The notes: generated from the letters alone by a model not told the origin. Positions 6,981 to 64,000 are shown, counted from the stretch's first letter. The stretch: 64,000 bases of DNA from Candidatus Woesearchaeota archaeon (GCA_047602885.1 JBLKOQ010000003.1:464-64463), one strand, 5' to 3'. Made by a program: numbers and translations.

Positions 6981-7089
6981 GCTAATAGAAGGATAATCAA
7001 ACATTATAAACTTTGCTAAATAATGTCCATAGTATTTACGATTAGTCATATTCCACACATTTTTTAAGTAACTATAGTTTCTTAATATC
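6981..7089. promoter_or_regulatory. Divergent promoter region between the beta-class MTase and uvrC.
   Basis: TATA-like boxes in both orientations: TTTATAAT on the minus strand upstream of the 6980 start, and TTTTTTAAG about 25 bp upstream of the uvrC ATG at 7090. Confidence 0.3.
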
Positions 7090-8676
7090 ATGAAAATCAA
7101 ACTCTCCAATATTCCCAAAGAGCCGGGCATATACATGTTCAAGGATGACAACAAAAAAGTAATATATGTGGGAAAAGCAAAGAACCTCAGGCAGAGAGTA
7201 TCATCATACTATAACAAGAATAATAATGCGAAGGCATTGTTCCTTACAAGACATATTCGGGATGTTGACTTTATTATAATGCCCTCAGAAAAGGACGCTC
7301 TTATACTAGAGAACAGGATGATAAAAAAGCATAATCCAAAATACAATATCAGGCTTAAGGATTCTAAGACATACTCTTATATCGCAATAACCAAAGAAGA
7401 GTATCCAAGGCTTATTAGCACGAGGAGAATACCCAAAGATACTGAGTGGTTCGGCCCTTATACTGAAGCGTTAAAAAAGAAAGAGACACTATTATTGGCA
7501 CAGAAGATATACAATATAAGGACATGCAAGAGGATGCCCAAAAAAGCATGCCTTAACTATCATATAGGGCTTTGTAGCGCTCCTTGCATCAATGCCATTA
7601 CCAAAGAAGAATACAATAATAGCGTAGTAAAAGCACTAAAATTTCTGAGAGGGGACATTAAGGAGACTCAAAAGAAGATCAGTGAAGAAATGCACTATTA
7701 TTCGAGCATGCAAAAGTATGAGATAGCACTCAAAAAGAAGAGACAGCTAGAATCTATAATGATACTGAGCGAGAAACAGAATGTAGAGCATAATATCGGC
7801 GATGACTGGGACATATGGGCGATAATGAGGGACAAGAACACCATACTAATAAGCATACTTACAGTAAGGAAGGGCATAATATCAGGAAAGAAGAACTATA
7901 ATATTGACGATAACAATGATAATGCAAGACAATTCCTAACACAATACTATACTACCAATAGAGTGCCTAAAGAGATAATAGTATCAGAAGAGTTATGGGA
8001 GGACAATGATGAGAAAGATGCGATAATAGAATATCTAAAGACTATAAAAAAACAGAGTGTCAGGATACTATTGCCTTTAAGAGGAGAGAAGAAAAGACTA
8101 TTGGACATAGCATTAAAGAACGCTATGGAAAGCACTAACATAAACAATGCTTCTTTGGAAATGCAAAAAATGCTAAACCTTGCATATCCTCCGAGGATTA
8201 TAGAATGTTTTGACATGAGCAACCTTCAGGGTACTGGAATAGTGGGTGGTATGACAAGATGGATTAACATGGCGCCTAACAAGAATGGTTATAGGAGGTT
8301 TGAGATTAGAGAGACTAAGAACAAGCCTGACGATTATAGTGCTATGAAAGAAACGGTATATAGGAGGTATAAGAGGCTAAAAGAAGAGTCATCCCAATAT
8401 CCCGACCTTATAATAGTGGATGGTGGAATAGGACAATTGAACGCTTCTATAAACGCACTATCAAGCCTAGGAATACAAATACCTATTATAGGAATAGCAA
8501 AGAAGAACGAAGAGATATACATTCCCAATACTAAAGAACCAATAAGAAGCAATCCTAACAAAGAGCCATTATTGTCTATCAGGAGGATTAGGGATGCCAC
8601 TCATAACTATGTATTATCTTATCATAGGCATAAGAGAAGGATGAATTTCAGGAAGGAAACCGGCAAGCAAACATAA
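7090..8676 (+). CDS. uvrC: Excinuclease ABC subunit C (UvrC).
   Basis: N-terminal GIY-YIG domain (GIYMFKD...VIYVGKAKNLRQRVSSY) and UvrC C-terminal nuclease/HhH region. Confidence 0.8.
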   Translation: MKIKLSNIPKEPGIYMFKDDNKKVIYVGKAKNLRQRVSSYYNKNNNAKALFLTRHIRDVDFIIMPSEKDALILENRMIKKHNPKYNIRLKDSKTYSYIAITKEEYPRLISTRRIPKDTEWFGPYTEALKKKETLLLAQKIYNIRTCKRMPKKACLNYHIGLCSAPCINAITKEEYNNSVVKALKFLRGDIKETQKKISEEMHYYSSMQKYEIALKKKRQLESIMILSEKQNVEHNIGDDWDIWAIMRDKNTILISILTVRKGIISGKKNYNIDDNNDNARQFLTQYYTTNRVPKEIIVSEELWEDNDEKDAIIEYLKTIKKQSVRILLPLRGEKKRLLDIALKNAMESTNINNASLEMQKMLNLAYPPRIIECFDMSNLQGTGIVGGMTRWINMAPNKNGYRRFEIRETKNKPDDYSAMKETVYRRYKRLKEESSQYPDLIIVDGGIGQLNASINALSSLGIQIPIIGIAKKNEEIYIPNTKEPIRSNPNKEPLLSIRRIRDATHNYVLSYHRHKRRMNFRKETGKQT

Positions 8677-8678
8677 AG

Positions 8679-9779
8679 TTAAAATAATGTCTTTGACAGC
8701 TTATACTTAGAATAGACCTTGCCAGGATCATAGTCTTTTGATAATGCTATGCCTTTACGGTTATACATTATATTCTTGTTCTCATCCCTAATATAAGGGT
8801 CGTGTATTGGCCTTATTCTCTTATTATACAGGCGTTTGCTAAAACATTTTTTTTCTTCAAGCCTCCTGTTAAGCTCTCCTATAATCTTATGCGCATCACC
8901 CTTCCTCTTCTTATACGCATATCGCAGCTTCAATAACAGCTCATTGCCAGACCTTGCTTTCAACAATCTCCTGCCATATCTTATAGGATTCTTGTCAACT
9001 GATGCTATATAGTATACTTCACTAAAATAGTGGTCAAGACTCGACTCTACAATGTTTACAGGCCTATTGGTAGCCTGTATATTCATCCCCAGAAAAGTGT
9101 CTTTTCCTATGCACAGTCCTGACTGCATGCCAAAATATGATATTGTAGGAATGCTCGTCTTGTAAGAGCCGTCCTTTTCGAGAAAGAATGACAACGCAGT
9201 ATCCTTATTGTCATATCCTGCAATATAATAGTTGCCTCCTTTAATCTCGGAGAGGTCCATTAGTCTTGACTGCATATCATTCATCAATACTATATTGGTT
9301 CTAACCACAGTATTCTTTGATATTATGGGTACTGCTATTGAATATCCACTGTCAGCAAGCTTTCCTCTCACAATATCGACATTAAGCGTAACGCTTGGCA
9401 ATACCACATACACTCCTCTGGCGTGTCTCGATACCATCTTAGAGTATAATCCTCCTGGAGAGGCTGCTGACGCTATAATAGTATAAGCATTCCTCAATAG
9501 TATATCATCACCTATATAGTCTGATATTGGATTGTCGTTAATCATTACTCTATGGATTTCTTTAAGACTGTTTATTTCGAAAGGGATGATAATGTCATTA
9601 TCAAGGTCTACTATATAGCATCCTCTAAGCCTAAGGCCATAACTGTAAGGATCTCCAATAGATGACGACGGCCATGTACTAGGTTTGTATAATACGGCTT
9701 CTCTTGCAGACAGGTGGAGGCTATGATACCTTCTTGGGGATTCTGGAAAAATCCTTTTCATAATGATAATATGATGCAA
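8679..9779 (-). CDS. Hypothetical protein (366 aa); last gene of the ATP-grasp/FGase operon.
   Basis: ORF 10 bp downstream of the FGase gene on the same strand. No motif recognised. Confidence 0.5.
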   Translation of the reverse strand: MHHIIIMKRIFPESPRRYHSLHLSAREAVLYKPSTWPSSSIGDPYSYGLRLRGCYIVDLDNDIIIPFEINSLKEIHRVMINDNPISDYIGDDILLRNAYTIIASAASPGGLYSKMVSRHARGVYVVLPSVTLNVDIVRGKLADSGYSIAVPIISKNTVVRTNIVLMNDMQSRLMDLSEIKGGNYYIAGYDNKDTALSFFLEKDGSYKTSIPTISYFGMQSGLCIGKDTFLGMNIQATNRPVNIVESSLDHYFSEVYYIASVDKNPIRYGRRLLKARSGNELLLKLRYAYKKRKGDAHKIIGELNRRLEEKKCFSKRLYNKRIRPIHDPYIRDENKNIMYNRKGIALSKDYDPGKVYSKYKLSKTLF

Positions 9780-9789
9780 TACTATATAA

Positions 9790-10512
9790 TTATGATGGAA
9801 TACTATCCTCTTTTATGGATGATATATAGTCAAAAGTGTCATTTAACACTCTTCTCAGCCTTTCTATTTTGGCATCATCAAGAACCAATGTATCCTCATC
9901 CATGTAAGCTCTCTTGGCTATCTCAAACTCTACTCCTATAGAACCATTCTCTAACACTCTTTTCATAATATTCGCCTTAAGGCCCTTGTAAGGATAGTCT
10001 ATTTTTACGTCGTAACCTTCAAGCTCGAATAATTCTTTTATCTTCATGACTATCTCTTTGGGACATAACGAGTATTCTCCTGTAGCTATGCATATGTCAG
10101 GCCTTATGGTCCCATGATCCCCTCCTCCCTTATTGCCTTGAGAGTCCATGCTATGACAGTCCCATACAAAACTATTGGGTTTTATCATGTCTATATCAGA
10201 ATAGAAAGGATCATAATATTGTGACAATAATGATTCTGTATCCTCAGGATATTTTTTCCATACATTATTGCCATGCCAGTCCTTCCTAATAATTACGCCT
10301 TGGTCACTGCTGAGATCGTCCCTCTTCCTATTAAGGTCTACTACGAATCTTGAAGCACCAGCCACTATCTTAGGGTATTTGAAAGGCTCGTATATCCTAT
10401 CAACCCCATAATCAATATTTTTTAGGATTGATTCAGGAGCTATCTCATAATCTTTTATCATATTTTCTGGAATGTATGTTGATGAGTGCGGTATTGTAAG
10501 TATAATATTCAT
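9790..10512 (-). CDS. N-formylglutamate amidohydrolase (FGase) family zinc hydrolase.
   Basis: LTIPHSSTYIPE near the N-terminus and WDCHSM (the family iDlHSM motif). Confidence 0.6.
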   Translation of the reverse strand: MNIILTIPHSSTYIPENMIKDYEIAPESILKNIDYGVDRIYEPFKYPKIVAGASRFVVDLNRKRDDLSSDQGVIIRKDWHGNNVWKKYPEDTESLLSQYYDPFYSDIDMIKPNSFVWDCHSMDSQGNKGGGDHGTIRPDICIATGEYSLCPKEIVMKIKELFELEGYDVKIDYPYKGLKANIMKRVLENGSIGVEFEIAKRAYMDEDTLVLDDAKIERLRRVLNDTFDYISSIKEDSIPS

Positions 10513-11405
10513 TGGTTATACCCCCTGTCATTGCTCGCCTTTATTTCTAGAGCAATATCTTTAATGTGCAATAACATCTTTCTTGCAAGCTCCCCTCCAA
10601 AATATTTTGGCATTATCCCGGGAGTAAAATTGGCTTCTATAAACCGTGTGCCATCACTGGTTTCTATAAAGTCTATAGCACATATCGAGAGTCCAAGCAA
10701 TTGGGAGCATGACAGTGCCATTTGCTTAATATCATCAGGAAGCTCAACAATTTCTGCTTTTCCTCCAGTGCTTACATTGGCCCTCCACTCATTCCCACTA
10801 CCTGTTCTCCTAATTCCTATAACCTCTTCTCCTATAACTAATCCTCGAGTATCAGTATTGGCGTTAGGTACGAATGACTGCATTGACAGGAATTCCTCGA
10901 ATACTTGCAGAGTGTCTAGTATAGGCCTTAATTCCTCCTCAGATTTTAATAGCATTACACCCTTACCCCCATAACCCTGCAATAGCTTTAATACTAGTGG
11001 GTATCCTAGTTTTTCTCCAAGGCATAATGCACTGCCAGGGCTTATGGACAGTGAAGAGTCTGGGCTTGGTATTCCTATCCTGGATACTTTCTGGACAGAA
11101 AAATATTTGTGATTGGTAATCTGGTATCCGTCAAGGCATGATGGCATTGCTATGCCCTTAGACTCTAACAAGTCCAATAATATTTCTGCAAACAAAAAGT
11201 CTTTTTGAAACACTCTAATATAAGCGCAGTCAAAAGAGGTTAAGTCTACATTCTTGTATTTTGCCTTAATCTCATTATCCTCCAAGTCTATCCTTACAAG
11301 GTCTATAGGAACGTACAATACGGAATCGAATATCTTCTTAGCCTCTTCTATGAAGATATGTTTTACATCCTCTCCGTCTTGGCCTGATATTAGCGCGAAT
11401 CTCAT
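10509..11405 (-). CDS. RimK/GshB-type ATP-grasp ligase.
   Basis: GYPLVLKLLQGYGGKGVMLLKSEEEL (ATP-grasp core) and C-terminal LGLSICAIDFIETSDGTRFIEANFTPG. Confidence 0.75.
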   Translation of the reverse strand: MRFALISGQDGEDVKHIFIEEAKKIFDSVLYVPIDLVRIDLEDNEIKAKYKNVDLTSFDCAYIRVFQKDFLFAEILLDLLESKGIAMPSCLDGYQITNHKYFSVQKVSRIGIPSPDSSLSISPGSALCLGEKLGYPLVLKLLQGYGGKGVMLLKSEEELRPILDTLQVFEEFLSMQSFVPNANTDTRGLVIGEEVIGIRRTGSGNEWRANVSTGGKAEIVELPDDIKQMALSCSQLLGLSICAIDFIETSDGTRFIEANFTPGIMPKYFGGELARKMLLHIKDIALEIKASNDRGYNQ

Positions 11406-48723: not shown

Positions 48724-49842
48724 ATGTTGTTATTTAACATCATGGGAAAGGGCTCTACTCAGATTCTTATAAGAAGGATAATAGAATCATTAGCTAAATC
48801 TCCAAAATCATCAAGTGAGATAGCAAGAGAGACAGGGCTTGACAGGACTGCAATATCAAGATACCTGGAAGTACTAAATAAAAGTGGTTTTGTAACAGTA
48901 GAAAAGAAGGGTTCTAGCAAGAGATTCATATTATCATCAAATTATCGTATAGACACTTATTTCGGCCTATCTCTAGACTCTAAGACTGATAGGCTGATTG
49001 ATTCCATATACTATTATATTAGCGAAAGATGGAAAGAGAATAGCAGTAGGAGATTGCTCAAGACTACTGCACAAAAAATAATGTATCAGATAATACATGA
49101 TTGTGATCTCAGCATTCCTAACGGATGGTATATTTATGGGGGTATATGCGTAAAGCCTTATGATGCTAATAGTAGTTATGGTCATCGCAGACTGTCACAG
49201 AGTATAATTAATTGTGTGAATGAGACAGTCACAGAATATTCTAAGAATAAGTTTGAGTATGAGAGCAAACAACTCCAATATAAGAAGGCGGGAAAAGAGC
49301 TCTATTATATCAAAGAGGATATTCTAAAGATACTATATTCTAAGAGTTTTACTAAAAAGTCAATGCATGTACTACAAAAACAGTATGCGAGATTAAGGAA
49401 GATAGTACCTTCAGGAGACGCTTTATATTATGAGATTATTAACGATTATGACACTCTCCTTATAGACATTACAAGAGAATGGGATCATTTTGTGGATGAA
49501 AAGGATGATAGGAATTATGCTGAGTTCAAGCACAAACTAGTTTCTTCATTTGAAGCATTATGGAAGATGATAGCCATGCAAAATTTTAAAGAAGACCTAC
49601 TATTAGGAGGATATTATATGGAAAAAGAGCTCTATGAACATTTCAGGCTTGATATAGCCCAGGCTAAAGAGGATGTTATAGAAATCTGTTCCCTGTTAAA
49701 CGAGATGATACCATCAGAAGAGCCCGATGACCCTGATTATGATGAGTTTAAGAGAATTATTAAGGAAGGCCATAAGCTGCCTAAGAAAGAGCAGGCTAGG
49801 CTGATAGAAAAGCTTAATTCAAAGATTAGGAGAAAATCATAA
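48724..49842 (+). CDS. wHTH-domain protein with a large uncharacterised C-terminal domain.
   Basis: N-terminal MarR/ArsR-like wHTH (SSEIARETGLDRTAISRYLEVLNKSGFVTVEKKG). Confidence 0.5.
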   Translation: MLLFNIMGKGSTQILIRRIIESLAKSPKSSSEIARETGLDRTAISRYLEVLNKSGFVTVEKKGSSKRFILSSNYRIDTYFGLSLDSKTDRLIDSIYYYISERWKENSSRRLLKTTAQKIMYQIIHDCDLSIPNGWYIYGGICVKPYDANSSYGHRRLSQSIINCVNETVTEYSKNKFEYESKQLQYKKAGKELYYIKEDILKILYSKSFTKKSMHVLQKQYARLRKIVPSGDALYYEIINDYDTLLIDITREWDHFVDEKDDRNYAEFKHKLVSSFEALWKMIAMQNFKEDLLLGGYYMEKELYEHFRLDIAQAKEDVIEICSLLNEMIPSEEPDDPDYDEFKRIIKEGHKLPKKEQARLIEKLNSKIRRKS

Positions 49843-50241
49843 TAATTGTTCAGGCTTGATTGTGGGGACTTTTGAATTCTTGAAATCATTCGTGTTTCTT
49901 GTCACAATGTAGTCAGCTTTAGCTCTTCTTGCCAGTATGCAGTGTAGCTCGTCCTGGACATTATTGGGATTCTGGCTTCTTGCCATTTCTTCATCCTCTT
50001 CCGTTTTTCTTACTTTTATGGTTTTCTTTTCGAGTATTTTAAGGAGTATTCTTGCGCTTGAAAGCCTCTTTTTTATTTCCAGCTCTTTTAGCGTCCAGTC
50101 AGATATTATCACATTATGCTCGCATTTTGCAGCCCTGAACAATAATACTCTAGAAGATGCTGATATGTCTTTTCCGAATAAGTTCATAGTATCGTCAAGA
50201 GCATACATTATTATGTTCGTATCAATGTAAAGCCTAGCCAC
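49837..50241 (-). CDS. PIN-domain protein (VapC-like ribonuclease fold).
   Basis: LYIDTNIIMYALDD near the N-terminus and C-terminal DYIVTRNTNDF. GTG start. Confidence 0.7.
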   Translation of the reverse strand: MARLYIDTNIIMYALDDTMNLFGKDISASSRVLLFRAAKCEHNVIISDWTLKELEIKKRLSSARILLKILEKKTIKVRKTEEDEEMARSQNPNNVQDELHCILARRAKADYIVTRNTNDFKNSKVPTIKPEQLL

Positions 50242-51096: not shown

Positions 51097-51819
51097 TTAT
51101 GGAGTCCTAAAGCTCTCTTCATTCACCAGGCTAATTACTCCAATACAAGAATCATTGTATTTTGCAAATTCATGTGGATTACTAATTGTTCTGATTAATG
51201 CGAACCCTTTGATTGGGATATTAGGAAAATGCTTTTTTAGTAAGCTAGCACAACCTTGCATTGTGGACCCTCTTGTAATGACGTCATCTATAAGAAGAAT
51301 GCTTCTTGGCTGATGAACTTGTGGTATTACCTTGATGCTATTGTAATGCTCTGTTGGTTTAGGGCGTTCAGATGAAACGGAGTATGATGATTTTTGCACA
51401 GGAATAAAACGTTGTAAACAAGGATAATAATTCCCAAGACCTTGTTTTGATAGTGCTCGTGCAATCCTGTCAGGAACCCACAAAGTATCTTTTTGCATAA
51501 GATGACTTTTAGGCACAGGAACTAAATCAATATCTTCTCCGAAAAAATCTTTGAAAGGAAAACTCTCAATCTTTGTTTTAATCATCTCTGAGATTAATTC
51601 AGATGTAACTCTTGGAGGATTACCTCTAATTGAGTCACTTTTTACATTATTCATTACATTTTTTGATTTCTTTATCTCCTCATTCTTCTGACCTTCAATG
51701 AATCTTGGACAATACGCGAATAAGGAGCCATATTCAAGATTAGAAAGTAACAAGTTGATTACCCCAAACATCCTCTTGGGTTTCGGATAGTTCTTCTGGG
51801 AGAGAATCCAAAAGGACAC
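51097..51819 (-). CDS. Phosphoribosyltransferase (PRTase) domain protein, ComF/ShosT-like.
   Basis: PRPP-binding loop ILLIDDVITRGSTMQG. The 5' end overlaps the upstream gene by ~80 bp, so the true start is probably the internal Met at 51771 or 51654. Confidence 0.6.
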   Translation of the reverse strand: MSFWILSQKNYPKPKRMFGVINLLLSNLEYGSLFAYCPRFIEGQKNEEIKKSKNVMNNVKSDSIRGNPPRVTSELISEMIKTKIESFPFKDFFGEDIDLVPVPKSHLMQKDTLWVPDRIARALSKQGLGNYYPCLQRFIPVQKSSYSVSSERPKPTEHYNSIKVIPQVHQPRSILLIDDVITRGSTMQGCASLLKKHFPNIPIKGFALIRTISNPHEFAKYNDSCIGVISLVNEESFRTP

Positions 51820-52573
51820 TCAAATCTTTGATGCTTAGGACTTCTGCGCCGTACTTTATTAGTTTGGAAGGCCAGCTCAGATTCTTGTTGTTTGCAAGGT
51901 CTTCTAGGATGAACAGTCTTCTACCAAGCCTTAATGCTTCCCAGCCCTGATGCATTGTTCCGCTCTTATCACTTGCCTCTACTATGACTGATACTCTAGA
52001 TATTAATGCCATAGTCCTGTTTCTTGCCGGAAAGTTTGATGGGAGTATTGGACTTCCTATTCTGAACTGGGATATTAGGAGATGGTTATTTTTTATTGTA
52101 TCTTGTAGCTTACTATTTTCTTTAGGATAGCAAGTGTCAAGAGGCGTTCCTATGACTGCTATCGTGTTTCCTTTGTTTCTTATTGCTGATTCGTGAGCTA
52201 TAGTGTCTATTCCTTTGGCTAGGCCGCTTACTATGATGACATTATTCTTAACCAGGAATTCTGCTATTATTCTGGCATTTTCCATTCCCTTGCTTGTAGG
52301 CTGCCTGGTGCCTATTATTGATATGCTCCTGCTTTTTGATGCCAATGCCTTATTTCCTATAATGTATAATTCCTTAGGGGCAAATTTTTGTTCAATATCA
52401 TTTAGATTGCCGATAAGATTGGATGTTTCTATAGTCTCAATATTGTCATCTGCGCTCATACGTAATACCCTATGCTCTGTATTATCATAAGCAATATTAT
52501 AAGCTTTGTTATACATGCTATTAAGGTCGTTATAAACCGTTAATATAGGTAACATGCACAAGTCCAGTGGCAT
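51740..52573 (-). CDS. DprA/Smf-like Rossmann-fold DNA-processing protein.
   Basis: IIGTRQPTSKGMENARIIAEFLVKNNVIIVSGLAKGIDTIAHESAIRNKGNTIAVIGTPLD matches the DprA core G.R..s.yG......la..La..g..vvSGlA.GIDaaAH. Confidence 0.7.
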   Translation of the reverse strand: MPLDLCMLPILTVYNDLNSMYNKAYNIAYDNTEHRVLRMSADDNIETIETSNLIGNLNDIEQKFAPKELYIIGNKALASKSRSISIIGTRQPTSKGMENARIIAEFLVKNNVIIVSGLAKGIDTIAHESAIRNKGNTIAVIGTPLDTCYPKENSKLQDTIKNNHLLISQFRIGSPILPSNFPARNRTMALISRVSVIVEASDKSGTMHQGWEALRLGRRLFILEDLANNKNLSWPSKLIKYGAEVLSIKDLSVLLDSLPEELSETQEDVWGNQLVTF

Positions 52574-52663: not shown

Positions 52664-53098
52664 ATGGAGCATCCTAATGAGGAAATCATGCGAAAAGCGA
52701 TAGAATATGGCTATACCAATAGAACAGTCGGCTGCATAATAACAAGAGATGATAAGATAATCGCTAAGGCTGGAGGGACGATATTTTCAGATGAGCATGA
52801 TGCCACAGGACACTCTGAAATAAATGCTATTAGGGCTGCATGCAAGAAACTGGGAACTCATGAACTGAAAGATTGCTGGCTGTACACTACTTATGAGCCT
52901 TGCCCTATGTGCATGTCTGCAATCTGCTGGGCAAAAATGGAAGGGGTTGTGTTTGCAGCAAACCATACTGATAGGAATGAGCGTTGGACTTGGGAAATAA
53001 TGATACCTTCTGAAAAGATAGTTGAGAAATCAGAGCACAAGCCAAGAATAATACCTAACTTCTTAAGAGAAGAATCATTGAAGATACTAAGATTATGA
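52664..53098 (+). CDS. Cytidine/deoxycytidylate deaminase-fold zinc deaminase (TadA/guanine-deaminase-like).
   Basis: H-x-E ...PCxxC zinc ligands (HSEINAIRAA, EPCPMCMSAI). Confidence 0.8.
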   Translation: MEHPNEEIMRKAIEYGYTNRTVGCIITRDDKIIAKAGGTIFSDEHDATGHSEINAIRAACKKLGTHELKDCWLYTTYEPCPMCMSAICWAKMEGVVFAANHTDRNERWTWEIMIPSEKIVEKSEHKPRIIPNFLREESLKILRL

Positions 53099-54479: not shown

Positions 54480-54818
54480 TTAACTTAAGTTACTAGCACC
54501 CCAAATTATAACTAAACCTGTAATTATTGATGAAGCTATCTTCCCTGCAGTGTAATAACTTTCAAACAGTTTAAATTTGAATGTATAGCTTATAATTCCA
54601 ACTACACCTAATAATGTCACAATGTTTGTGTATAAAATAATAATAGGAGGTACAATCTCATAAATACCAAAGAATGTTACAAGTGCAATAGCATTAGCAA
54701 ACATTGTAACTCTTCCCGTATAATGTTTCTCAACTAAATAACCAATTAGAATCAAAGACAAAGGTGCTAACAAATGAAAAAACGAATAAGGTAATAAATC
54801 CAGAAGCCAAATATTCAT
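54480..54818 (-). CDS. Hypothetical small membrane protein (112 aa).
   Basis: ORF with 3-4 TM helices; overlaps the hsdS stop by 4 bp. Confidence 0.4.
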   Translation of the reverse strand: MNIWLLDLLPYSFFHLLAPLSLILIGYLVEKHYTGRVTMFANAIALVTFFGIYEIVPPIIILYTNIVTLLGVVGIISYTFKFKLFESYYTAGKIASSIITGLVIIWGASNLS

Positions 54819-56281
54819 GATTCCACCTCAAAAGCTTCCCTTAAAATAGTATTCATCAATGCTTCAGAATTCTTTTGATTTTCCTTAATTCGAGATTCAA
54901 GTTGAACGAAAACATCCATAAGTTGATCGATTTTTTGGACAATTCTCTTTTGTTCTTCCAAAGGGGGAAGAGGGACTATACAGTTCTTAATGGTTCCAGT
55001 GCCAAGTTCTGTTTGCTTAGTACTACCAGTTACTTTAAGATTATCTTGTACATACTTAGAAGATAGCCAAGATAGAACAAATTTATTATACACCAAATCA
55101 TTAACAACTCTAACTATAGTAACATGGGAGTCTACAACTACTCGCTTGTATAGATGTTTTTCATTGTATTCGCATATTCTCCCTATTGTTCCATCGCCAG
55201 TAGAATTCCATAATAAATCTCCACTGATTACGAAACGAATATCTTCATACTTATGTATCGATTGAGGATCAATATATCTTACTTTATTAATGTAAAATCC
55301 ATTCCACTGAACACATTTCTGAGAAATCACAGGATAATCGCTAATCTCTGTGTACTTAGGAGATCTTCCCCTTTGAATGTAACTACTAATATCTCCCAAT
55401 CTCACCCATTCCCATCCTTTCGGTAATTCATAAGGAAGTTCTTCTTTAGATATCAGAGGTAATGGTTTTTCTTTTCTTATCTTCTTTTCTTTTACTAACA
55501 GTTCTTTTTCTTTCTTTATTTTTTGTAGCAGAACTGATGCTGGTTCATCATTAGGATCTTGTGGAACAAGCTTTCCTTCAACTGCTTCAGAAAGGATTGC
55601 TTGACGAAGCTTTGAAACGAATTTTGTGTTCTTTTGTGTAATTGATGATATTAAACTAAGTTTCTCTGATAAAAAATGTACTTTAATAATTTCTCGCTCA
55701 ATTTCTTGATCAAAATACTTCATTGTTTTTAAAGATTCACTAAAAAAATCATCAAGGAAGTTGACTATTCTTAATTGTAACTCTTTATCTTTGCAAAAAA
55801 TAATCTGCTCCTTTAGTAGATATTTGTAATGTCTGCTATACCCTCTTTCTTCAACAGTCAAACCTTTCAATTGATAATAAAAGAATCTTGCATTAAAGAT
55901 ATTTTTAGGCTTTAGTATTTTTACTCCATCAGCCCCTTGAGCGAAATCAAAATCTACATATTTAATTGATTTTGTATGGTCTCCGAAAATTATAAAGGGA
56001 CCATGTATTATTTTTGCATCCTCGTTATTTGTGTAGCCAGCAATAAAACTCTTTCCTTGATCAATTATAGGAATTTTTCCTTTAATGAGATAATCTTTTT
56101 TTTGTATTTTAGAAGGTATTCTGAAGTTTAATCTATCTAACGAATTATTGACAGATATTTTAACTCCAAAATTATTATCCAAGAGGTACTCATTTATTAA
56201 CGCAATATAAGTTTTAATATTACTCATAAATAATAAGTTTTTCATCTTAAAGTTCCTTCTTGATTTGTTCAAGTAGCTCAA
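54815..56281 (-). CDS. hsdS: Type I restriction-modification specificity subunit HsdS.
   Basis: Two target-recognition domains separated by conserved coiled-coil repeats. Overlaps the hsdM 3' end; the true start may be the Met at ~56245. Confidence 0.8.
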   Translation of the reverse strand: MSYLNKSRRNFKMKNLLFMSNIKTYIALINEYLLDNNFGVKISVNNSLDRLNFRIPSKIQKKDYLIKGKIPIIDQGKSFIAGYTNNEDAKIIHGPFIIFGDHTKSIKYVDFDFAQGADGVKILKPKNIFNARFFYYQLKGLTVEERGYSRHYKYLLKEQIIFCKDKELQLRIVNFLDDFFSESLKTMKYFDQEIEREIIKVHFLSEKLSLISSITQKNTKFVSKLRQAILSEAVEGKLVPQDPNDEPASVLLQKIKKEKELLVKEKKIRKEKPLPLISKEELPYELPKGWEWVRLGDISSYIQRGRSPKYTEISDYPVISQKCVQWNGFYINKVRYIDPQSIHKYEDIRFVISGDLLWNSTGDGTIGRICEYNEKHLYKRVVVDSHVTIVRVVNDLVYNKFVLSWLSSKYVQDNLKVTGSTKQTELGTGTIKNCIVPLPPLEEQKRIVQKIDQLMDVFVQLESRIKENQKNSEALMNTILREAFEVES

Positions 56282-57674
56282 TGTTTTCTTTCATTGATTT
56301 TTCTAAAATATCAATGATTTCCTTACTTGACATATGCTCAGTTTCATCTATGTTATTTGGATTGTTAATGTCCAGGTTATAGTTTCTCTTCTTTATTTCA
56401 TCTATACTGACTTTCCAACAGTATTGCTTAAATTCGTCATTCTCTCTGTCCTTCCACCATCTTTTCTCTAAATCAAACTCTTCAATTCGCATTGGTCTAG
56501 TTTTATTGTATGTTTTGTATCCATCAGGAAGAGGATGTTCAAAATACCATATTTCCTTAGTTGGTTTTCCTTTTTCAAAGAATAATAAGTTTGTTCTTAT
56601 TGAAGTATAAGGATTAAACACACCATTAGGCAGCCTGACTATAGTATGTAAATTGAATTCATCCAGCAATTTTTCTTTAATCCTAGTCTTAACACCTTCT
56701 CCAAATAGAAACCCATCAGGAAGTACTATTCCACACCTACCTTCATCACGTAACAATTCCATTATCAACACCAAGAATAGATCTGCAGTTTCTCTTGTTC
56801 TAAATGATGCTGGAAAGTTATTCTCTATACCTACTTCTTCAGCACCTCCAAAAGGAGGATTTGTTACAACTATATCTACCATATCTGAAGGTCCAATATC
56901 TCTTATAGGTCTACTGAGAGAATTATCATGTCTGATATCAGGTAATTCAATATCATGCAATATCAGATTTGTAGTTGCTAATAGATGAGGTAACGGTTTC
57001 TTTTCTATACCTCTAAGACATTTCTCCAACTTTTCTCTTTCATCTACAGTATTAACTGATTTTTTTAAGTTCTCCAAGCTTGAAATAAGAAATCCTCCTG
57101 TACCACATGCAGGATCTAGTATTAGTTCACCTAATTTTGGATCAATAATATCAACTATGAACTGAGTTACAGCCCTTGGAGTATAATATTCTCCCGCATT
57201 ACCTGCACTTTGTAAATCTCTTAATATCTGCTCATATATATCATTAAATGTGTGCCTATCAGCAGTCGTATGAAAATCGACTTCATTTAACTTGTTAATT
57301 ACCTGTCTAATTAACGCTCCGTGTTTCATATAATTATAAGCATCTCTAAATAATTCTCGTACAAGAATCGCTTTCTTATCATCTTCATTAGCTTCTAGAT
57401 TTTTTAACTTAGGAAATAAAACATTATTAATGAATTCAAGCAAATCTTCACCAGTTATTCCTTCATCATCCGTAGCCCAACTTCTCCATCTGAGGTTCTC
57501 AGGTATAGGTGATTTATAATTATCATCTTCTAGCTCCCATTCTTCTTCTTTCGCATCAAAGACTTTTAGAAATATCATCCAAACTAATTGAGAAATTCTT
57601 TGTGCATCTCCATCTACTCCAGAATCCTTTCTCATTATATCCTGTATTGATTTTATTATTGTTGACAAACTCAT
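56247..57674 (-). CDS. hsdM: Type I restriction-modification N6-adenine methyltransferase subunit HsdM.
   Basis: HsdM N-terminal domain (ISQLVWMIFLKVFD), motif I LDPACGTGGFL and motif IV NPPFG. Confidence 0.9.
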   Translation of the reverse strand: MSLSTIIKSIQDIMRKDSGVDGDAQRISQLVWMIFLKVFDAKEEEWELEDDNYKSPIPENLRWRSWATDDEGITGEDLLEFINNVLFPKLKNLEANEDDKKAILVRELFRDAYNYMKHGALIRQVINKLNEVDFHTTADRHTFNDIYEQILRDLQSAGNAGEYYTPRAVTQFIVDIIDPKLGELILDPACGTGGFLISSLENLKKSVNTVDEREKLEKCLRGIEKKPLPHLLATTNLILHDIELPDIRHDNSLSRPIRDIGPSDMVDIVVTNPPFGGAEEVGIENNFPASFRTRETADLFLVLIMELLRDEGRCGIVLPDGFLFGEGVKTRIKEKLLDEFNLHTIVRLPNGVFNPYTSIRTNLLFFEKGKPTKEIWYFEHPLPDGYKTYNKTRPMRIEEFDLEKRWWKDRENDEFKQYCWKVSIDEIKKRNYNLDINNPNNIDETEHMSSKEIIDILEKSMKENIELLEQIKKEL

Positions 57675-57676
57675 TC

Positions 57677-60022
57677 TTAAGCCTCCGCATATAATTGTTC
57701 TTCCAATTCTCTTATTGCTTCAATATAACCTTTCTTTCCTCCAAAGTATTTTACAATCTCAAAAGGAGTGCCTAAATCTCTTAGAGGGTTTACTTTTAGT
57801 ACATTTAAGCTTTCAAGGTCTAGGATGCCTTCATCAGCGTATTTGTCCAAAAGAGCATCAAGTACTACTCTAGCTTTTTCTCCATACTTAGAGAAGTAAT
57901 TCTTTTTCTTTACATTCTTTGCCCTCTCCTGTCTAGTGAGAGGTTTCTTATCAAAAGCAACATGGCATATTAGGTCAAAAGGATCATAATCTCTTCCAAC
58001 TTCTCTTTGAAGTTCATCTAATAGTATGCCTTGCTCTTCTAATTTCTCTATAATAATAGACTTTTTAGTTGAATCATTCCAATCCTTCAAAAATTTACTA
58101 AGAGTCTTATACTCTTGATAAAGAGTTTTCTTTGTAAAATCTTGAAGACTTTCTGTTATCAGTCTCCCTTCACTATCATAAAACAATACCCTCTGATTAA
58201 TTACTTTAACAGGAACTCCTTTGACATAGTATTTTCTAGGTCTTTCTTTAGTATCTTTAATAAAGACTTGTTCTTGTTTAGTTAAACCATACTTGTCCTC
58301 CTTATCTTTTATAGCCTCAGGAATATCTATTTTCTTATTAGGGGGAACTTCATATATTTGAACTGGTTCTCCGTCAAAGTCTGGATCGGCGAACAAATCT
58401 GTAACTTGTCTAAAATCCATTATAGTGAAATAGTACTTCCCATAATCTTCTCTAATTCTTGTACCTCTTCCGATTATTTGTTTAAACTCAGTCATTGATT
58501 GAATGTTAGAATCTAATACTATTAGTTTGCATGTTTGTGCATCTACCCCTGTATTCATCAATTTAGAAGTTGTTACTATAACAGGATATTTAGTCTTAGG
58601 ACTAATAAAATTATCTAATTCTTTTTTACCTAAATCATCATCACCAGTAATTTTCATAACATATTTGGAATTTTTCTTAATTAAATCATAATTCTCGTTC
58701 CTTAATTCTAATCTCATTCTCTCAGCATGATCAATGTCTACACAAAAAACTATAGTTTTAGCGTATCTATCCCCTGAATTTTTAAGGTATTCTGTAATTT
58801 TTTTCGCCACGGTTTCTGTTCTTTCATCAATTGCAAGATTTCGATCAAAGTCTTTAGAATTATAAACACGATCTTCTACAGCGTACCCATATTTATCTTT
58901 TTGTCCTCTACTTGGACGCCATCCTTCAACATCTCTATCTAATGAAATCTTCACAACTTTATAGGGTGCTAAAAATCCATCCTCAATACCTTGTTTTAAA
59001 GAATAAGTATATATTGGTTCACCAAAATAATCTATATTTGAAATATGCTTTGTTTCTTTTGGTGTTGCAGTTAGACCTATTTGTGTTGCTGACTCAAAGT
59101 ACTCTAATATTTCTCTCCAAGCAGAATCTTCTTTAGCGCTTCCTCTATGACACTCATCAACAACTATTAAATCAAAGAAATCTTTTGAGAACTGTTTATA
59201 TATGTTCTTCCAATCATCATTTCCAGACAATCCTTGATATAAAGCCATATAAACTTCATAAGATTTGTCAACTTTTCTATTTGTGATTTTCTTCATTGCG
59301 CCACTGAATATTTTAAAATCATTATTCATAGTTTGATCAACAAGAATGTTTCGATCTGCGAGAAATAAAATTCTTTTTTTGCTTTTTGATTTCCATAACT
59401 TATATATGATTTGAGATGCAACATATGTTTTTCCTGTTCCTGTGGCCATGACTAACAAAACTCTTTCCTGACCTTTAGCTATGTTTTCTACGGCTCTATT
59501 AATTGCAACTTCTTGATAATAACGGGGAGACTTTCCGGTTTGGGAAGTATGATAATTATGCGTTATGATACTTTCATGTTCTTCTTCTATTCCCTTCCAT
59601 ATCTTGTATCTATTCCACAACTCTTCTGGAGAAGGAAATTCATCAAGTAAAAGCTCCCTTTCAATGTATTTTCCTTTACCTGTTCTATCGTGTTCTATAA
59701 AACCATCACCGTTAGAACTGTAAACAAAAGGTATGTCCAAAATCTCTCCATAACTAATCGCTTGCTGTAAACCTGAACCTATTGTATGTTTATTGTCCTT
59801 AGCTTCAATTACTGCAATAGGCATATTTGGTTTATAATACAGGATATAATCTGCTCTTTTTCTTTCACCACGAATAATTCTTTTTCCTCTAACTATTATT
59901 TTACCATCAGTAAATGTTCTCTCTTCTCTAATCTGCTTATCTTTATCCCAGCCGGACTTTAAAATAGCAGGAGTTATGTATTTCGTACATATATCCCGTT
60001 CGGATAGATCTTTCAGATTCAT
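57677..60022 (-). CDS. hsdR: Type I restriction enzyme R subunit HsdR.
   Basis: HSDR_N region ([18 protein letters not shown]...ADYILYY...IEAKD), SF2 helicase motifs ([13 protein letters not shown]) and helicase C-domain motifs. 781 aa, at the short end for HsdR. Confidence 0.85.
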
Positions 60023-60124: not shown

Positions 60125-60650
60125 ATGGCTCAGTTGAAAATCTCCGAAAAGTGTGCTATGCGCCACCCCGAAGGGGCCGACCCCCGGCGCATCAGCGTCA
60201 CGCAAGAACATTCGTTCCTGCTCAAGCTGACGGCTACCGCACACTTTTTCTACAGAGCCGTTAACCTGGGCTCTGTAGAAAATCTCCATAGGCGTAAGCC
60301 TATGTTATAGGCTATGAGCCTGCTGAATAGTTCTGCGGTTTGTGTCTTGATGTGTTTGCCGCTAAGACTGGTTCCGAATAGTCTTTTTAGTGCTGAGTAT
60401 AATGATTCTATGATGTTTCTTTGCCAGTACAAGGTGTAGTCTATGCAGTCTCTCATTAGTTTTCTGTGTCGTCCTCGACGACAACCTTTGCGTGCTGGTG
60501 CTATGCTGAACGTGCCGTTTTCTTCTAGCCATTGATGCAGCCATTCTGCATCATAAGCCTTGTCAAGCAGCAGTACTTCTGGTTTTAGACTTGTTCTTTT
60601 GTGAAGTTGTGGTATGCTTCTGGCTTCATTTCTTGGTTTTGCATATGATT
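60125..60650. mobile_element. Remnant of an IS4/IS5-family insertion sequence (3' portion only); GC-rich relative to the flanks.
   Basis: Carries the transposase C-terminal fragment and GC-rich terminal palindromes (for example TTTCTACAGAGCC-GTTAACCT-GGGCTCTGTAGAAA at 60245-60281). GC is about 50% against about 33% around it. Confidence 0.6.
60250..60641 (-). pseudogene. IS4/IS5-family DDE transposase, C-terminal ~130-aa fragment; the N-terminal two-thirds is missing.
   Basis: Minus-strand frame reads ...AKPRNEARSIPQLHKRTSLKPEVLLLDKAYDAEWLHQ...YWQRNIIESLYSALKRLFG. DKAYD is the third catalytic-region motif and YWQRNIIESLYSALK is an exact Y-x2-R-x3-E-x6-K signature. No in-frame start. Confidence 0.7.
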
Positions 60651-60813: not shown

Positions 60814-62271
60814 ATGAGCATCTTAGATAGGCTTTTTAAACTGGTTCGAAAAGAGAAACTTCCGAAAGAAATTGATGAAGATAATTCTTTAGCATCAGAT
60901 GATAAGGAAAACGATACTGATTCGATAGAAGATTATGAATATCCTGAGGTTCTAGAAGAATTAGACAATGGACAAAAATCAGCAGTAACAACTAATCATA
61001 AAAGAACACTGGTACTTGCAGGAGCAGGAGCAGGAAAAACTAGAGTATTAATACACAGGATACTCCATCTCATAATGAACTGCAAAGTCAATTCTGGAAA
61101 TATACTTGCGGTTACTTTTACAAGAGATGCCACTTATGAAATGAAAGATAGGCTAATATCTCATTTCGAGCCAGAATATTTCGATAAAATTAAAGAGATT
61201 AAAGATAATTATGAAACTTATAAGTTTAAAACAACAATGCAATATAAGCATCCTGAAATAAGAAACTTGGATGTTAAAACAATTCATTCGCTGTGTTATC
61301 AAATATTGAGACTAGATGGCGCAAAAGTATTCAATACGAATTTTCAAGTAATAGGCGACGAAGACAAGAAAACCGATGACACTCAAAAAGGAATATCACA
61401 ACAGAAAATAATAAAAAATATAATTTTTGAGATAGGTAATGAAAATCCAGACTATTTAGAAAAAGTTAAGAAATTCATATATGATTATCTGGTAGATTAT
61501 GAGAAAATTACTCTAGCAAAATTAAGCATTTCGCCAGGTAAATATATGACTTTAGATGGAAAAGAAGTGAGGTCCAAATCTGAACGAGATATAGCCAATT
61601 TCCTAATTCAACACAACATCAAATACGATTATGAACGAGAAGCTACATGGGTAACAAAATCAGATCAAAACAAAAGATATCATCCTGATTTCTATTTACC
61701 TGAATATGACATATACATTGAACATTGGGCAGTAACCTCTTCTGAAGATGCAACAGACAAGAACTTTGAACAAACATTTGATAAGGAAAAATATCTTGCA
61801 GAAAGAAAATGGAAAATTAGCCAGTTTAAAAAACATAATAAAAAGCTAATAGAATCATCTGAAAAACAAATGCGCGGCAATCTAAACGATTATCATCAAT
61901 GGTTATACGGAGAAATCTTCAGACTTACTAATGGAGCCATTAAATTCAATCAAACTTCAAATTTCATTTTAGAGGACAAACGCATGACAGAAGGATTGAT
62001 TTTACTAATCAGAAGTTTCATGAAAATAATTAATCTAGCAAAATCTAATAGAGTATCTGAAGAAACAATAAAGACCAATCTGAAAAAAGAGAAACATGAA
62101 GAGATACTAGAATTCTATGATATATTCTTAACTACATTTGGTGCTTATGAGGAATTCCTTATAAGGAAAAGCCTAATTGACTATAACGACATGATACATA
62201 AAGTTATCGATTTGTTCAATGTAGATAAAAAAATATTATTAAAATACCAAAAAAATATAAGCATATACTAG
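60814..62271 (+). CDS. UvrD/PcrA-family SF1 helicase, N-terminal fragment. It has a Walker A, motif Ia and an embedded PD-(D/E)XK (DUF559/Vsr-like) nuclease-type insert, and ends at a frameshift.
   Basis: GAGAGKTRVLIHR (motif I), ILAVTFTRDATYEM (Ia). The insert reads SKSERDIANFLIQHNIKYDYE...YHPDFYLPEYDIYIEHW, resembling the E...DF...IE.DG.H core of DUF559-type endonucleases. Confidence 0.65.
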   Translation: MSILDRLFKLVRKEKLPKEIDEDNSLASDDKENDTDSIEDYEYPEVLEELDNGQKSAVTTNHKRTLVLAGAGAGKTRVLIHRILHLIMNCKVNSGNILAVTFTRDATYEMKDRLISHFEPEYFDKIKEIKDNYETYKFKTTMQYKHPEIRNLDVKTIHSLCYQILRLDGAKVFNTNFQVIGDEDKKTDDTQKGISQQKIIKNIIFEIGNENPDYLEKVKKFIYDYLVDYEKITLAKLSISPGKYMTLDGKEVRSKSERDIANFLIQHNIKYDYEREATWVTKSDQNKRYHPDFYLPEYDIYIEHWAVTSSEDATDKNFEQTFDKEKYLAERKWKISQFKKHNKKLIESSEKQMRGNLNDYHQWLYGEIFRLTNGAIKFNQTSNFILEDKRMTEGLILLIRSFMKIINLAKSNRVSEETIKTNLKKEKHEEILEFYDIFLTTFGAYEEFLIRKSLIDYNDMIHKVIDLFNVDKKILLKYQKNISIY

Positions 62272-62321
62272 TTGATGAATACCAAGATGTTTCATCAGCA
62301 CAAGTAGAGCTTATAAGTCTG

Positions 62322-63347
62322 TTGCTCTGCAAAGATAACTCTTTATTTGCAGTAGGAGATGATTGGCAAAGCATATATGGTTTTCGAGGTTCCGAAGTCG
62401 AATTCATTGTTAATTTTAATGAAACATTCAAAGATAGTAATGTTATAGTACTTCCATATAACTATCGTTCCGGCAAAAATATCGTTGACGCTTCAAATAT
62501 CGTAATAATGAAAAATCCTAATCAGATCAATAAACACATAAAAGCGTTCTATGAGAATAAAGACGAAAAGATCTTCCAATATAATGCATTAAATGACATT
62601 GATAGTGCTAATTTCATAATAGATGTTACAAAAAAACACTATGCAGAAGGGTATGAATACAATGATATCCTTCTTCTTTACAGAAGAAGCAGGCATATAT
62701 ATCCGTATAAGGAATACTTCAAGAAGCACAATTTTAAGATTAACACCAAAACAATACATGGCTCAAAAGGATTAGAAGCCAAAATAGTTTTCTTAATCGG
62801 AATGACTACAGATGGATTTCCTTTTGTTTGGGAAGATTCGAGAGTAATACAAGTAATAAAGAAAACAGACTTACTAAGAAAAGAAGAGGAAGAAAGAAGA
62901 ATCTTTTACGTTGCAATGACTCGAGCTCAAGAAAGACTTATATTACTATCGGAAAAGAATAATGAATCATCATATTGTTCAGATATACCTTCAGATTTCA
63001 AGAAAGTCAAAGTATCAAAACAAGAGTTTACCGAAGAAATGCTCAGCCCTAAATTAAGAGGCATACTACAAAGATTGGAAGACGGACAAAATCCAGATGA
63101 AATATCAATAGATTTAGATGAAGAACAAACAAATGTTGAAAAATATATAGCCAGATTAATAGAAATGGGGCTTGTTGATGTTAAGAAATTTGTTAATGAA
63201 AAAAATTATGCACTGATTGCTTCTGAAATACCATCTGATGAACAAAGTCCAAGGCTAAACCCAATTAAAAGAGCTCTACCAAAAAGTATAAGCTATGGTG
63301 AAATAAGGTACGTTATAGCCGATTGGAAACACAAACAGAAAGAATAG
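62322..63347 (+). CDS. UvrD/PcrA-family helicase, C-terminal fragment (motifs II-VI) with a C-terminal winged-helix-like tail. Same gene as 60814-62271.
   Basis: In this frame the sequence upstream of the annotated start reads KHILVDEYQDVSSAQVEL (motif II DEYQD). Then GDDWQSIYGFRGSEV (III), HGSKGLEAK (V-like) and VAMTRAQERLILL (VI). The ORF caller starts at a TTG. Confidence 0.65.
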   Translation: MLCKDNSLFAVGDDWQSIYGFRGSEVEFIVNFNETFKDSNVIVLPYNYRSGKNIVDASNIVIMKNPNQINKHIKAFYENKDEKIFQYNALNDIDSANFIIDVTKKHYAEGYEYNDILLLYRRSRHIYPYKEYFKKHNFKINTKTIHGSKGLEAKIVFLIGMTTDGFPFVWEDSRVIQVIKKTDLLRKEEEERRIFYVAMTRAQERLILLSEKNNESSYCSDIPSDFKKVKVSKQEFTEEMLSPKLRGILQRLEDGQNPDEISIDLDEEQTNVEKYIARLIEMGLVDVKKFVNEKNYALIASEIPSDEQSPRLNPIKRALPKSISYGEIRYVIADWKHKQKE

Positions 63348-63483: not shown

Positions 63484-64000
63484 ATGGGTCTTAAGGAAGA
63501 ACTTCTAAGAAATATACTTGGGGGCATTAAAGGAGAATCCATATCTTTAGGAGAGAACTCAATAAAAAACATAAACGAAGTGAAAAGAGTCTATAAACTA
63601 TTACTAGGAACTTCTAACAAACTTCCTTTGCGAATAGGTAACTTTGATATTAAAGTACAAGGAACATACATAGAATTAGATGAGCATTTGCACTTCAACA
63701 GATATAGGTTAATAACTCTCAACTCAAGCATTTATAAGAATACTAAAATATTCAATTTAGAACTATACAAGAAACTCTGCAAAGAACACGAAGAAGATTG
63801 CCTTAAATCAGGAGGATATGGTGGAAAATGGAAGAACAACAGCACAGAAAAATTGTTTGCTAAATCATCACCTTATAAGGATTTAAGAGGAAACGGACCA
63901 TCTAGATGGAGACAAAGAGCATTTTATGATTTTATGAAGGATCTTTATGCAACAGAGAAAAAAATTAAACTTAGAAGGTTTTCAGTTTGGGAAAGGATTG
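63484..64000 (+). CDS. Hypothetical protein, 5' portion (runs off the window end).
   Basis: ATG at 63484 and an open frame to position 64000 (MGLKEELLRNILGG...RRFSVWERI). Not in the ORF track because no stop lies within the window. Confidence 0.4.
   Translation, partial: MGLKEELLRNILGGIKGESISLGENSIKNINEVKRVYKLLLGTSNKLPLRIGNFDIKVQGTYIELDEHLHFNRYRLITLNSSIYKNTKIFNLELYKKLCKEHEEDCLKSGGYGGKWKNNSTEKLFAKSSPYKDLRGNGPSRWRQRAFYDFMKDLYATEKKIKLRRFSVWERI

Follow-up and report, generated by a model that had tools for sequence, protein, structure and literature searches.

Are the two adjacent open reading frames (ORFs) at 60814-62271 and 62322-63347 of a Woesearchaeota contig two genes, or the pieces of one? 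The contig comes from a metagenome-assembled genome (MAG) of this DPANN archaeon, and we refer to the whole 64-kilobase (kb) stretch that was analysed as the window. A preliminary description, made from the sequence alone, had proposed a UvrD-family helicase with an embedded nuclease module, interrupted by a frameshift in a run of seven A (A7). The answer is one gene: the analysis confirms ORF 60814-62271 as its first half and the frame that ends at 63347 as its second. As a whole, the best explanation, and one that we consider likely, is a single gene for a superfamily 1A (SF1A) helicase of a widespread and uncharacterised subfamily, carrying a nuclease insert in its domain 1B and broken in frame by the loss of one A from a run of eight (A8 to A7).

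The two ORFs, the A7 run at 62249-62255 and a downstream frame reading KHILVDEYQD are all present in the sequence. As written, the upstream frame is closed by a premature TAG at 62269-62271; the downstream frame is open already 5' of 62322, where it reads KKYKHILVDEYQD, and the frame break lies six codons before helicase motif II. An intact reading at the A7 site would be CAA AAA AAA TAT (A8): one A added there gives a single continuous product, reading ...KYQKKYKHILVDEYQD, as had been predicted, with a length of 844 amino acids (aa) and not the ~830 first estimated. A second A7 is found at 62227-62233, 22 nucleotides (nt) upstream of the one at the shift site. The shift is assigned to 62249-62255 by the orthologue alignment: the upstream frame agrees with orthologues through KYQK and the downstream frame agrees from KYKH. 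A homopolymer scan of the window listed 142 runs, 39 of them at least 7 nt long, and only at the helicase locus do long open frames flank a run in different frames. The same scan showed no other frameshifted gene in the window, which would have been a sign of error-prone assembly; the overlapping ORF pair 51097-51819 / 51740-52573 was considered as a frameshifted gene and rejected, being DprA and an unrelated ORF.

Comparison with orthologues identifies the break as a 1-nt shift in A7. A search with the repaired protein returned eight full-length orthologues (P0001-P0008; 804-860 aa, 53-66% identity, 94-100% coverage), all uninterrupted at the site, where they read KYQKK[F/Y]KHILVDEYQD or a close variant. 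Their DNA at the A-run is CAAAAAAAA, CAAAAAAAG, CAAAAGAAG, CAGAAAAAA or CAAAAAATA, every one in frame, which means that one A is missing in the window from a Q-K-K codon string of A8 type. Likewise, the helicase is a single ORF in 17 of 17 insert-bearing family loci, drawn from DPANN, Bacteroidota, Actinobacteria and Proteobacteria. Both frames in the window are long and open, as they would be if this were a genuine two-gene arrangement whose halves cooperate as a split helicase. Such a split is nevertheless found in none of the eight orthologues and none of the 17 loci; it would also fall six codons before the motif II strand, within domain 1A, parting Walker A from Walker B, and the sole candidate start of the second half (TTG 62322) lies past motif II. 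We therefore regard two genuine genes as extremely improbable.

The gene is non-functional as written. Walker A and the nuclease domain are in the 485-aa product, which lacks Walker B; the downstream product has no Walker A, and because the two motifs are on separate polypeptides neither product can be an ATPase. A second disruption was seen in a DPANN orthologue at the locus L090 (L090:1560-1683; contig SDBV01226695.1), where motif II reads DEY*D, its invariant Q codon replaced by TAA, ~12 codons or less from the window's frameshift position. Its frame runs on normally past the TAA, a region 70 nt from the contig end. Stop-codon recoding was rejected there, as the preceding 490 codons contain no other in-frame TAA; the stop may have arisen by error or by true nonsense mutation, or may point to selection for inactivation.

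Judged by its sequence matches, the repaired protein is a UvrD/PcrA/Rep-type SF1A DNA helicase, in agreement with the family first proposed. PF00580 (UvrD-helicase) covers residues 51-540 with E 9e-62 (209.6 bits against a cut-off of 23) and PF13361 (UvrD_C) follows with E 8e-24 (85.1 bits against a cut-off of 25.6), both above gathering score. Walker A and the DExQD motif II are present; what is missing from a complete SF1A gene is an intact ORF in this genome, because of the -1 shift at 62249-62255. Across 62 family members, A69, A71, G72, G74, K75 and T76 of Walker A and D488, E489, Q491 and D492 of motif II are invariant. Sequence matches in the PDB are to PcrA, UvrD and Rep (E 6e-50 to 1e-40). 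The full AlphaFold2 (AF2) model, built on a 62-sequence alignment, has a mean predicted local distance difference test (pLDDT) score of 89.5 and a predicted template-modelling (pTM) score of 0.82; its best Foldseek matches are PcrA and UvrD at ~1e-26 (PcrA 1qhg, E 1.5e-26). The tail, which had been called winged-helix-like, matches HTH_40 (E 2e-10). UvrD-helicase, UvrD_C and HTH_40 occur in all eight full-length orthologues, and HTH_40 also in a C-terminal fragment, P0009.

The protein does not belong to any of the named helicases tried. It was rejected as a PcrA, UvrD or Rep equivalog (TIGR01073, TIGR01075 and TIGR01074: 278, 247 and 204 bits against cut-offs of 911, 1144 and 951), and likewise as the DNA helicase IV (HelD) equivalog NF008276 (242.9 bits against 543). 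Automated labels for the subfamily are 'DNA helicase IV' for JGI relatives and 'UvrD-helicase domain-containing protein' from PGAP for plasmid-borne members.

What sets this protein apart is an insert of ~120 residues between motif Ia and motif II, and the proposal of an embedded PD-(D/E)XK nuclease-like module holds up by fold, Foldseek and profile. In the AF2 domain model (pLDDT 87.1) the core is alpha-beta-beta-beta-alpha-beta, with helices at 24-35 and 93-109 and strands at 62-64, 69-74 and 113-118. The top Foldseek matches in the PDB are PD-(D/E)XK nucleases only: I-Bth0305I (3r3p), Vsr (1vsr/1cw0), R2 endonuclease, Bax1, AbaSI and Cas4. Core topology and similarity to solved nucleases together place the model in the PD-(D/E)XK fold. 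Matches to predicted viral structures are stronger (E 1e-6 to 1e-4), and these are named Endonuclease I, restriction enzyme, DUF559, homing endonuclease, Holliday junction resolvase, DUF2726 and Vsr.

Profile comparisons gave relatives by sequence. Against the PDB, the insert profile finds T7 endonuclease I (2pfj and 1m0d, E 3e-4), with family E257, D292 and E303 aligned to its catalytic E20, D55 and E65; against PHROGs, it finds phrog_9019, 'Holliday junction resolvase' (E 1.5e-8), and endonuclease families too. S254, E257, Y273, E274, P291, D292, F293, E303 and H304 do not vary among 62 sequences, a conservation equal to that of the helicase motifs. The label 'DUF559/Vsr-like' that the insert had been given stands at the level of fold, where I-Bth0305I, Vsr and phage DUF559 proteins are matched by Foldseek. 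It fails by hidden Markov model (HMM): neither DUF559 (PF04480) nor Vsr (PF03852) matches at E ≤ 1, in the full protein or in 32 insert sequences, and no Pfam model scores above its gathering score for the insert. By sequence, then, the nearest relatives of the insert appear to be T7 endonuclease I and the Holliday-junction resolvases of phages, and its modelled fold appears closest to Vsr, I-Bth0305I and DUF559.

For the intact protein, we infer a nuclease activity, a substrate and a biological role as follows. Its motor, being homologous to UvrD and PcrA, would be expected to run along single-stranded DNA in the 3'-5' direction. In the structures of these two enzymes, domain 1B sits at the single-strand/duplex junction. 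Because of this position, a nuclease in domain 1B could cut or nick the displaced strand or a branched junction met by the helicase, while the HTH_40 tail would add DNA binding. The whole would be a self-contained helicase-nuclease for forks, recombination intermediates or foreign DNA.

The family behind the window copy is very large. Of 1.84 billion cluster representatives, 12,608 are matched by the insert profile at E ≤ 1e-3, a number that falls to 3,141 at E ≤ 1e-10, and long proteins form the majority of the best 150 matches. Nine representatives were scanned with Pfam: UvrD helicases were recognised in the three full-length proteins (1,163-1,756 aa) and in two partial proteins of 448 and 670 aa; the four shortest, which are probably fragments (158-253 aa), have no Pfam family. 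The insert is found across Bacteroidota, Actinobacteria, Proteobacteria, Asgard and DPANN. Fifty-two plasmids carry the family as a single gene flanked by insertion sequences (IS), in one case beside a Lit exclusion gene.

Was the missing A lost by the organism or by the assembly? The break must be recent or artefactual, because it is the sole defect, the invariant residues are kept and conservation does not drop after the shift: there is a single lesion in 2.5 kb and no later decay is visible. None of the 42 family-invariant residues has been lost on either side of the shift (those after it run from D488 to S719). Before the shift, the ratio of window-to-orthologue to orthologue-to-orthologue identity is 0.96-1.00; in the helicase core beyond it the value is 1.03, and the 3' part is 72% identical to the orthologues, equal to the identity among the orthologues themselves.

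Between a very recent real mutation and a homopolymer miscall in the assembly, we lean slightly to mutation. This weak preference is held because only one of the 39 runs of at least 7 nt is affected and because neighbouring proteins are exact in independent assemblies: Logan assemblies of two sequencing runs (SRR32456880 and SRR32456869) reproduce the neighbouring window proteins exactly, which suggests accurate reads. The decayed IS next door is also counted toward a real mutation. If the frameshift were instead a sequencing or assembly error, the organism would carry A8 and make the intact 844-aa helicase-nuclease. A single lesion in a homopolymer of a MAG consensus, with every invariant residue and the full downstream conservation kept, is in line with such an error. 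So is the lack of an NCBI or Logan protein for either half, which fits a 'frameshifted pseudogene' flag and is silent on cause. On the other side stand the exact neighbouring proteins just mentioned, and the other 38 runs of at least 7 nt, including A8, A9, A10 and three T8, which are without frame break; because these long runs keep their frame, the assembly is not generally homopolymer-error-prone. We put the chance of an error at somewhat below one half. Genome and metagenome scans yielded no near-identical contig: orthologues in JGI metagenomes are at most 65% identical, and the GTDB genome scan, which used back-translated patterns of generic character, gave mostly generic UvrD, Rep and HelD loci and not the source genome.

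The A-run had also been put forward as a slippage-prone switch, that is, a phase-variable contingency tract or programmed slippage site from which a fraction of genomes, transcripts or ribosomes would give the full-length protein. The break does lie in a homopolymer of the slippage-prone type, A8 restores the frame, a second A7 is close by, and the gene is of a kind that can cost much to express. A run of seven or eight A is short for efficient slippage, and no stimulatory element was seen downstream, no search aimed at one having been made. None of the orthologues is shifted at this site and the tract is not conserved among them, being interrupted and variable (CAAAAGAAG, CAGAAAAAA, CAAAAAATA); we consider a switch very unlikely, and abandon this part of the preliminary description.

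Several points weigh against the explanation as we have given it. The canonical (D/E)xK lysine is absent from the insert: K67 of T7 endonuclease I corresponds to W305 in the window protein and to other residues elsewhere in the family. For want of this lysine, the putative activity would need H304, which is invariant, or K334, conserved in at least 90% of members, and the insert could be a non-catalytic DNA-junction binder. PF05367 (Phage_endo_I) stays below its gathering score (22.7 bits, E 8e-5, against 29.1), with 8 of 32 members matching at E ≤ 1; on sequence grounds the insert is best described as a remote relative of the Phage endonuclease I family rather than a member. Foldseek E-values in the PDB are weak, 3e-3 and above, with probabilities near 1 for the first four matches. 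As to the locus, Logan contigs from this population reach only 153 nt past hsdR, to the IS remnant, and do not include the 3.8-kb segment with the helicase, and exact look-ups in the NCBI and Logan protein collections found neither helicase half. Finally, the mechanism is built on analogy: no experimental study of this helicase-insert family came up in literature searches, some of them on UvrD with inserts of endonuclease-I-like, Vsr-like or restriction-endonuclease-like type.

Coordinates of the helicase gene, its parts and its neighbours in the window
Feature	Coordinates	Strand	Evidence and remarks
ORF, upstream	60814-62271	+	485 aa; ends ...KKILLKYQKNISIY*
ORF, downstream	62322-63347	+	341 aa; TTG start
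Helicase gene, 5' part (codons 1 to ~481, A7 run included)	60814-62255	+	Frames and span of Pfam UvrD-helicase
Walker A / motif I (A69 G A G A G K T76)	61018-61041	+	Read from sequence; first half of gene
PD-(D/E)XK endonuclease-like domain (residues ~236-356), inside helicase domain 1B	61519-61881	+	Profile, AF2, Foldseek
Candidate active-site residues E257; D292; E303-H304	61582-61584; 61687-61689; 61720-61725	+	Invariance and T7 endonuclease I alignment
A7 homopolymer, -1 frameshift site	62249-62255	+	Sequence reading, homopolymer scan, orthologue reads
Helicase gene, 3' part in shifted frame (codons ~482-844; motifs II-VI and UvrD_C region)	62256-63347	+	Frames, Pfam, conservation
Motif II DEYQD (Walker B)	62274-62288	+	Read from sequence; second frame, cut off from Walker A by frameshift
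HTH_40 helix-turn-helix / winged-helix domain (residues 753-835)	63069-63317	+	PF14493, E 2e-10, 41.3 bits against gathering score 27
Type I restriction-modification operon, intact	54815-60022	-	hsdR 57677-60022, hsdM 56247-57674, hsdS 54815-56245
Truncated IS, C-terminal part of DDE transposase, between hsdR and helicase	60250-60650 (segment 60130-60650)	-	Pfam DDE_Tnp_1, E 3.7e-8, model positions 60-200 of 200
DUF7255 gene, cut by window end	63484-64000	+	Pfam PF23913, E 4.8e-47

The type I restriction-modification (RM) operon and the IS remnant reported to adjoin the helicase are both real. The hsdRMS genes are tightly packed or overlapping, and the same proteins occur on two Logan contigs, where their Pfam families were read; NCBI names the S subunit. 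The IS remnant is a locally GC-rich segment against ~32% GC around it. Because the Logan contigs of the same population break at this remnant, the join between RM operon and helicase is taken from the NCBI contig alone. A few kb upstream of the RM operon are DprA (DNA_processg_A, 51740-52573), a nucleoside deaminase (52664-53098) and a PIN_3-like ORF (49837-50241), a group followed by several ORFs without family match. Scans of the window for tRNA and Rfam families were empty.

On the other side of the helicase, the DUF7255 gene, which contains a 'IELDEHLHFNRYR' stretch, had been suggested as a partner, and this we reject: tblastn with the DUF7255 fragment gave nothing better than E 0.9 in 91 related loci, and the 17 family loci have no conserved neighbour in common. 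DUF7255 has no match in PDB, PHROGs, PADLOC or NCBIfam, and its name was not found in the literature searched.

Could the intact protein be a helicase-nuclease that acts alone in defence against phages or plasmids, with its place next to the RM operon marking a defence island? We hold this to be possible but rather doubtful, as the contexts of the family pull in both directions. In its favour, the window copy lies beside hsdRMS and the IS remnant; the orthologue at locus L089 starts 8 nt downstream of an MmeI-like RM enzyme, near an integrase; that at L001 lies among genes for Csa3/CARF, Fic, nucleotidyltransferase, Cas4-like, MazG-like and Schlafen-like helicase proteins; and that at L006 is among PemK and PIN toxins. 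The plasmid copies described above, IS-flanked single genes with one beside Lit, and a family neighbourhood that is never conserved point the same way. So do matches of the insert alone to the PADLOC candidate models PDC-S69 (5.5e-13), HEAT_CxxC_PDDEXK (7e-10) and PDC-S68 (7e-9). Against a defence role, these last matches are limited to the nuclease domain, covering only its core of ~70-110 residues (model positions 179-249 of 289; 1101-1205 of 1221), and full-length PADLOC matches reflect a generic GajB/UvrD similarity, with no GajA-like partner. In addition, the L005 orthologue is beside housekeeping genes, for serine hydroxymethyltransferase (SHMT) and a class II aminoacyl-tRNA synthetase of Asp/Asn type, and the L088 orthologue is between exonuclease VII and the glutamyl-tRNA synthetase GluRS. 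These mixed contexts fit an accessory, horizontally mobile gene. Membership in PDC-S68, PDC-S69 or HEAT_CxxC_PDDEXK was rejected: there is no full-length match, and the three models are absent from the best 25 of 47 full-protein matches.

Two of these loci merit a closer description. At L089 (L089:25-3231), a second RM adjacency, the RM enzyme is an MmeI/Eco57I-like type IIL protein of 1,068 aa, and the integrase, phage-type, is downstream. At L001, from a Nanoarchaeia MAG with defence-island-like surroundings in which RadC is also present, a 392-aa Cas4/AddB-like PDDEXK_1 protein (6826-8004) overlaps the start of the helicase (8001-10520) by 4 nt and is translationally coupled to it, an arrangement that suggests, for that lineage only, a two-nuclease pair of AddAB type.

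A bolder proposal would join all these strands: an unstudied class of enzymes in which a junction-resolvase/Vsr-like endonuclease within UvrD domain 1B couples unwinding and cutting at the fork, serving archaea and bacteria as a mobile single-gene module of defence or genome maintenance, and in which repeated knock-outs on the motif II side (the A7 of the window, the TAA of L090) would reflect selection against a costly enzyme. We think it improbable.

For the window itself, the analysis amounts to an annotation correction: one disrupted gene instead of two, and no partnership with DUF7255. What the window shows is an ordinary case of gene disruption, or else a slip of the assembly, in a family that is common and yet unstudied. 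Beyond the window there is a modest but real point: a very large family with an invariant endonuclease-like domain inside a UvrD motor carries only generic database names. Often found on plasmids, and beside RM and toxin-antitoxin genes, it would be a reasonable candidate for a defence or fork-processing enzyme.

How does the protein compare with systems that are already known? The comparisons with Gabija, Nhi and Hachiman made at the outset are analogies only. Like Gabija GajB, the window protein would be a UvrD-type helicase, with PADLOC GajB models matching up to E 2.5e-60 and the PDB GajB chain 8jqb at E 8e-10. GajB, in contrast, is without an embedded nuclease, and no GajA (OLD-type ATPase/TOPRIM) is adjacent at the window locus; Gabija membership was rejected, since the helicase has the IS remnant and hsdR on its upstream side and DUF7255 on its downstream side. 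Nhi and Hhe are similar in general concept, each a defence protein that unites a helicase and a nuclease. They use other helicase classes, and no Nhi/Hhe-type model is among the best 25 of 47 PADLOC matches.

For the insert alone, the best relatives by sequence are T7 endonuclease I and the phage resolvases (Phage_endo_I; phrog_9019 and phrog_945). T7 endonuclease I is a free domain-swapped dimer with K67, whereas the insert is a domain within a helicase, with a residue other than lysine at that position and an invariant His after the Glu. The best PDB fold matches are those of the Vsr/DUF559/I-Bth0305I group (3r3p, E 3e-3; 1vsr, E 1e-2; probability at least 0.99), but TM-scores are modest (0.45-0.59) and the DUF559 and Vsr Pfam HMMs match none of the 32 members at E ≤ 1. 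The 'PDF ... T-H' arrangement of Vsr parallels the 'PDF ... E-H' of the insert.

On the motor side, UvrD, PcrA and Rep share all helicase motifs and the 1A/2A core, and provide the best PDB matches by sequence (PcrA 1pjr, E 6e-50) and by fold (1qhg); they differ from the window protein in that its domain 1B is longer by ~180-200 residues, which hold the nuclease domain, and that it has an HTH_40 tail. E. coli HelD also has the UvrD-type core, and NF008276 matches residues 343-727 (243 bits). HelD (locus L024), on the other hand, has 217 residues from Walker A to motif II and no PDF or EH motif, and tblastn with the insert gave no match in the E. coli helD locus. The same spacing is 359-401 in the relatives with both motifs scored and ~417 in the window protein, all of which have the insert.

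The closest functional analogy is AddA or RecB. These proteins, and AdnB, combine an SF1A motor with a PD-(D/E)XK nuclease in one polypeptide, and Foldseek relates the model to AddAB and RecBCD at E 1e-19 to 1e-17. Their nuclease, however, is RecB-type and C-terminal, and they act in multi-subunit complexes; in the window protein, which has no conserved partner, the putative nuclease is of endonuclease I / Vsr type and lies inside domain 1B.

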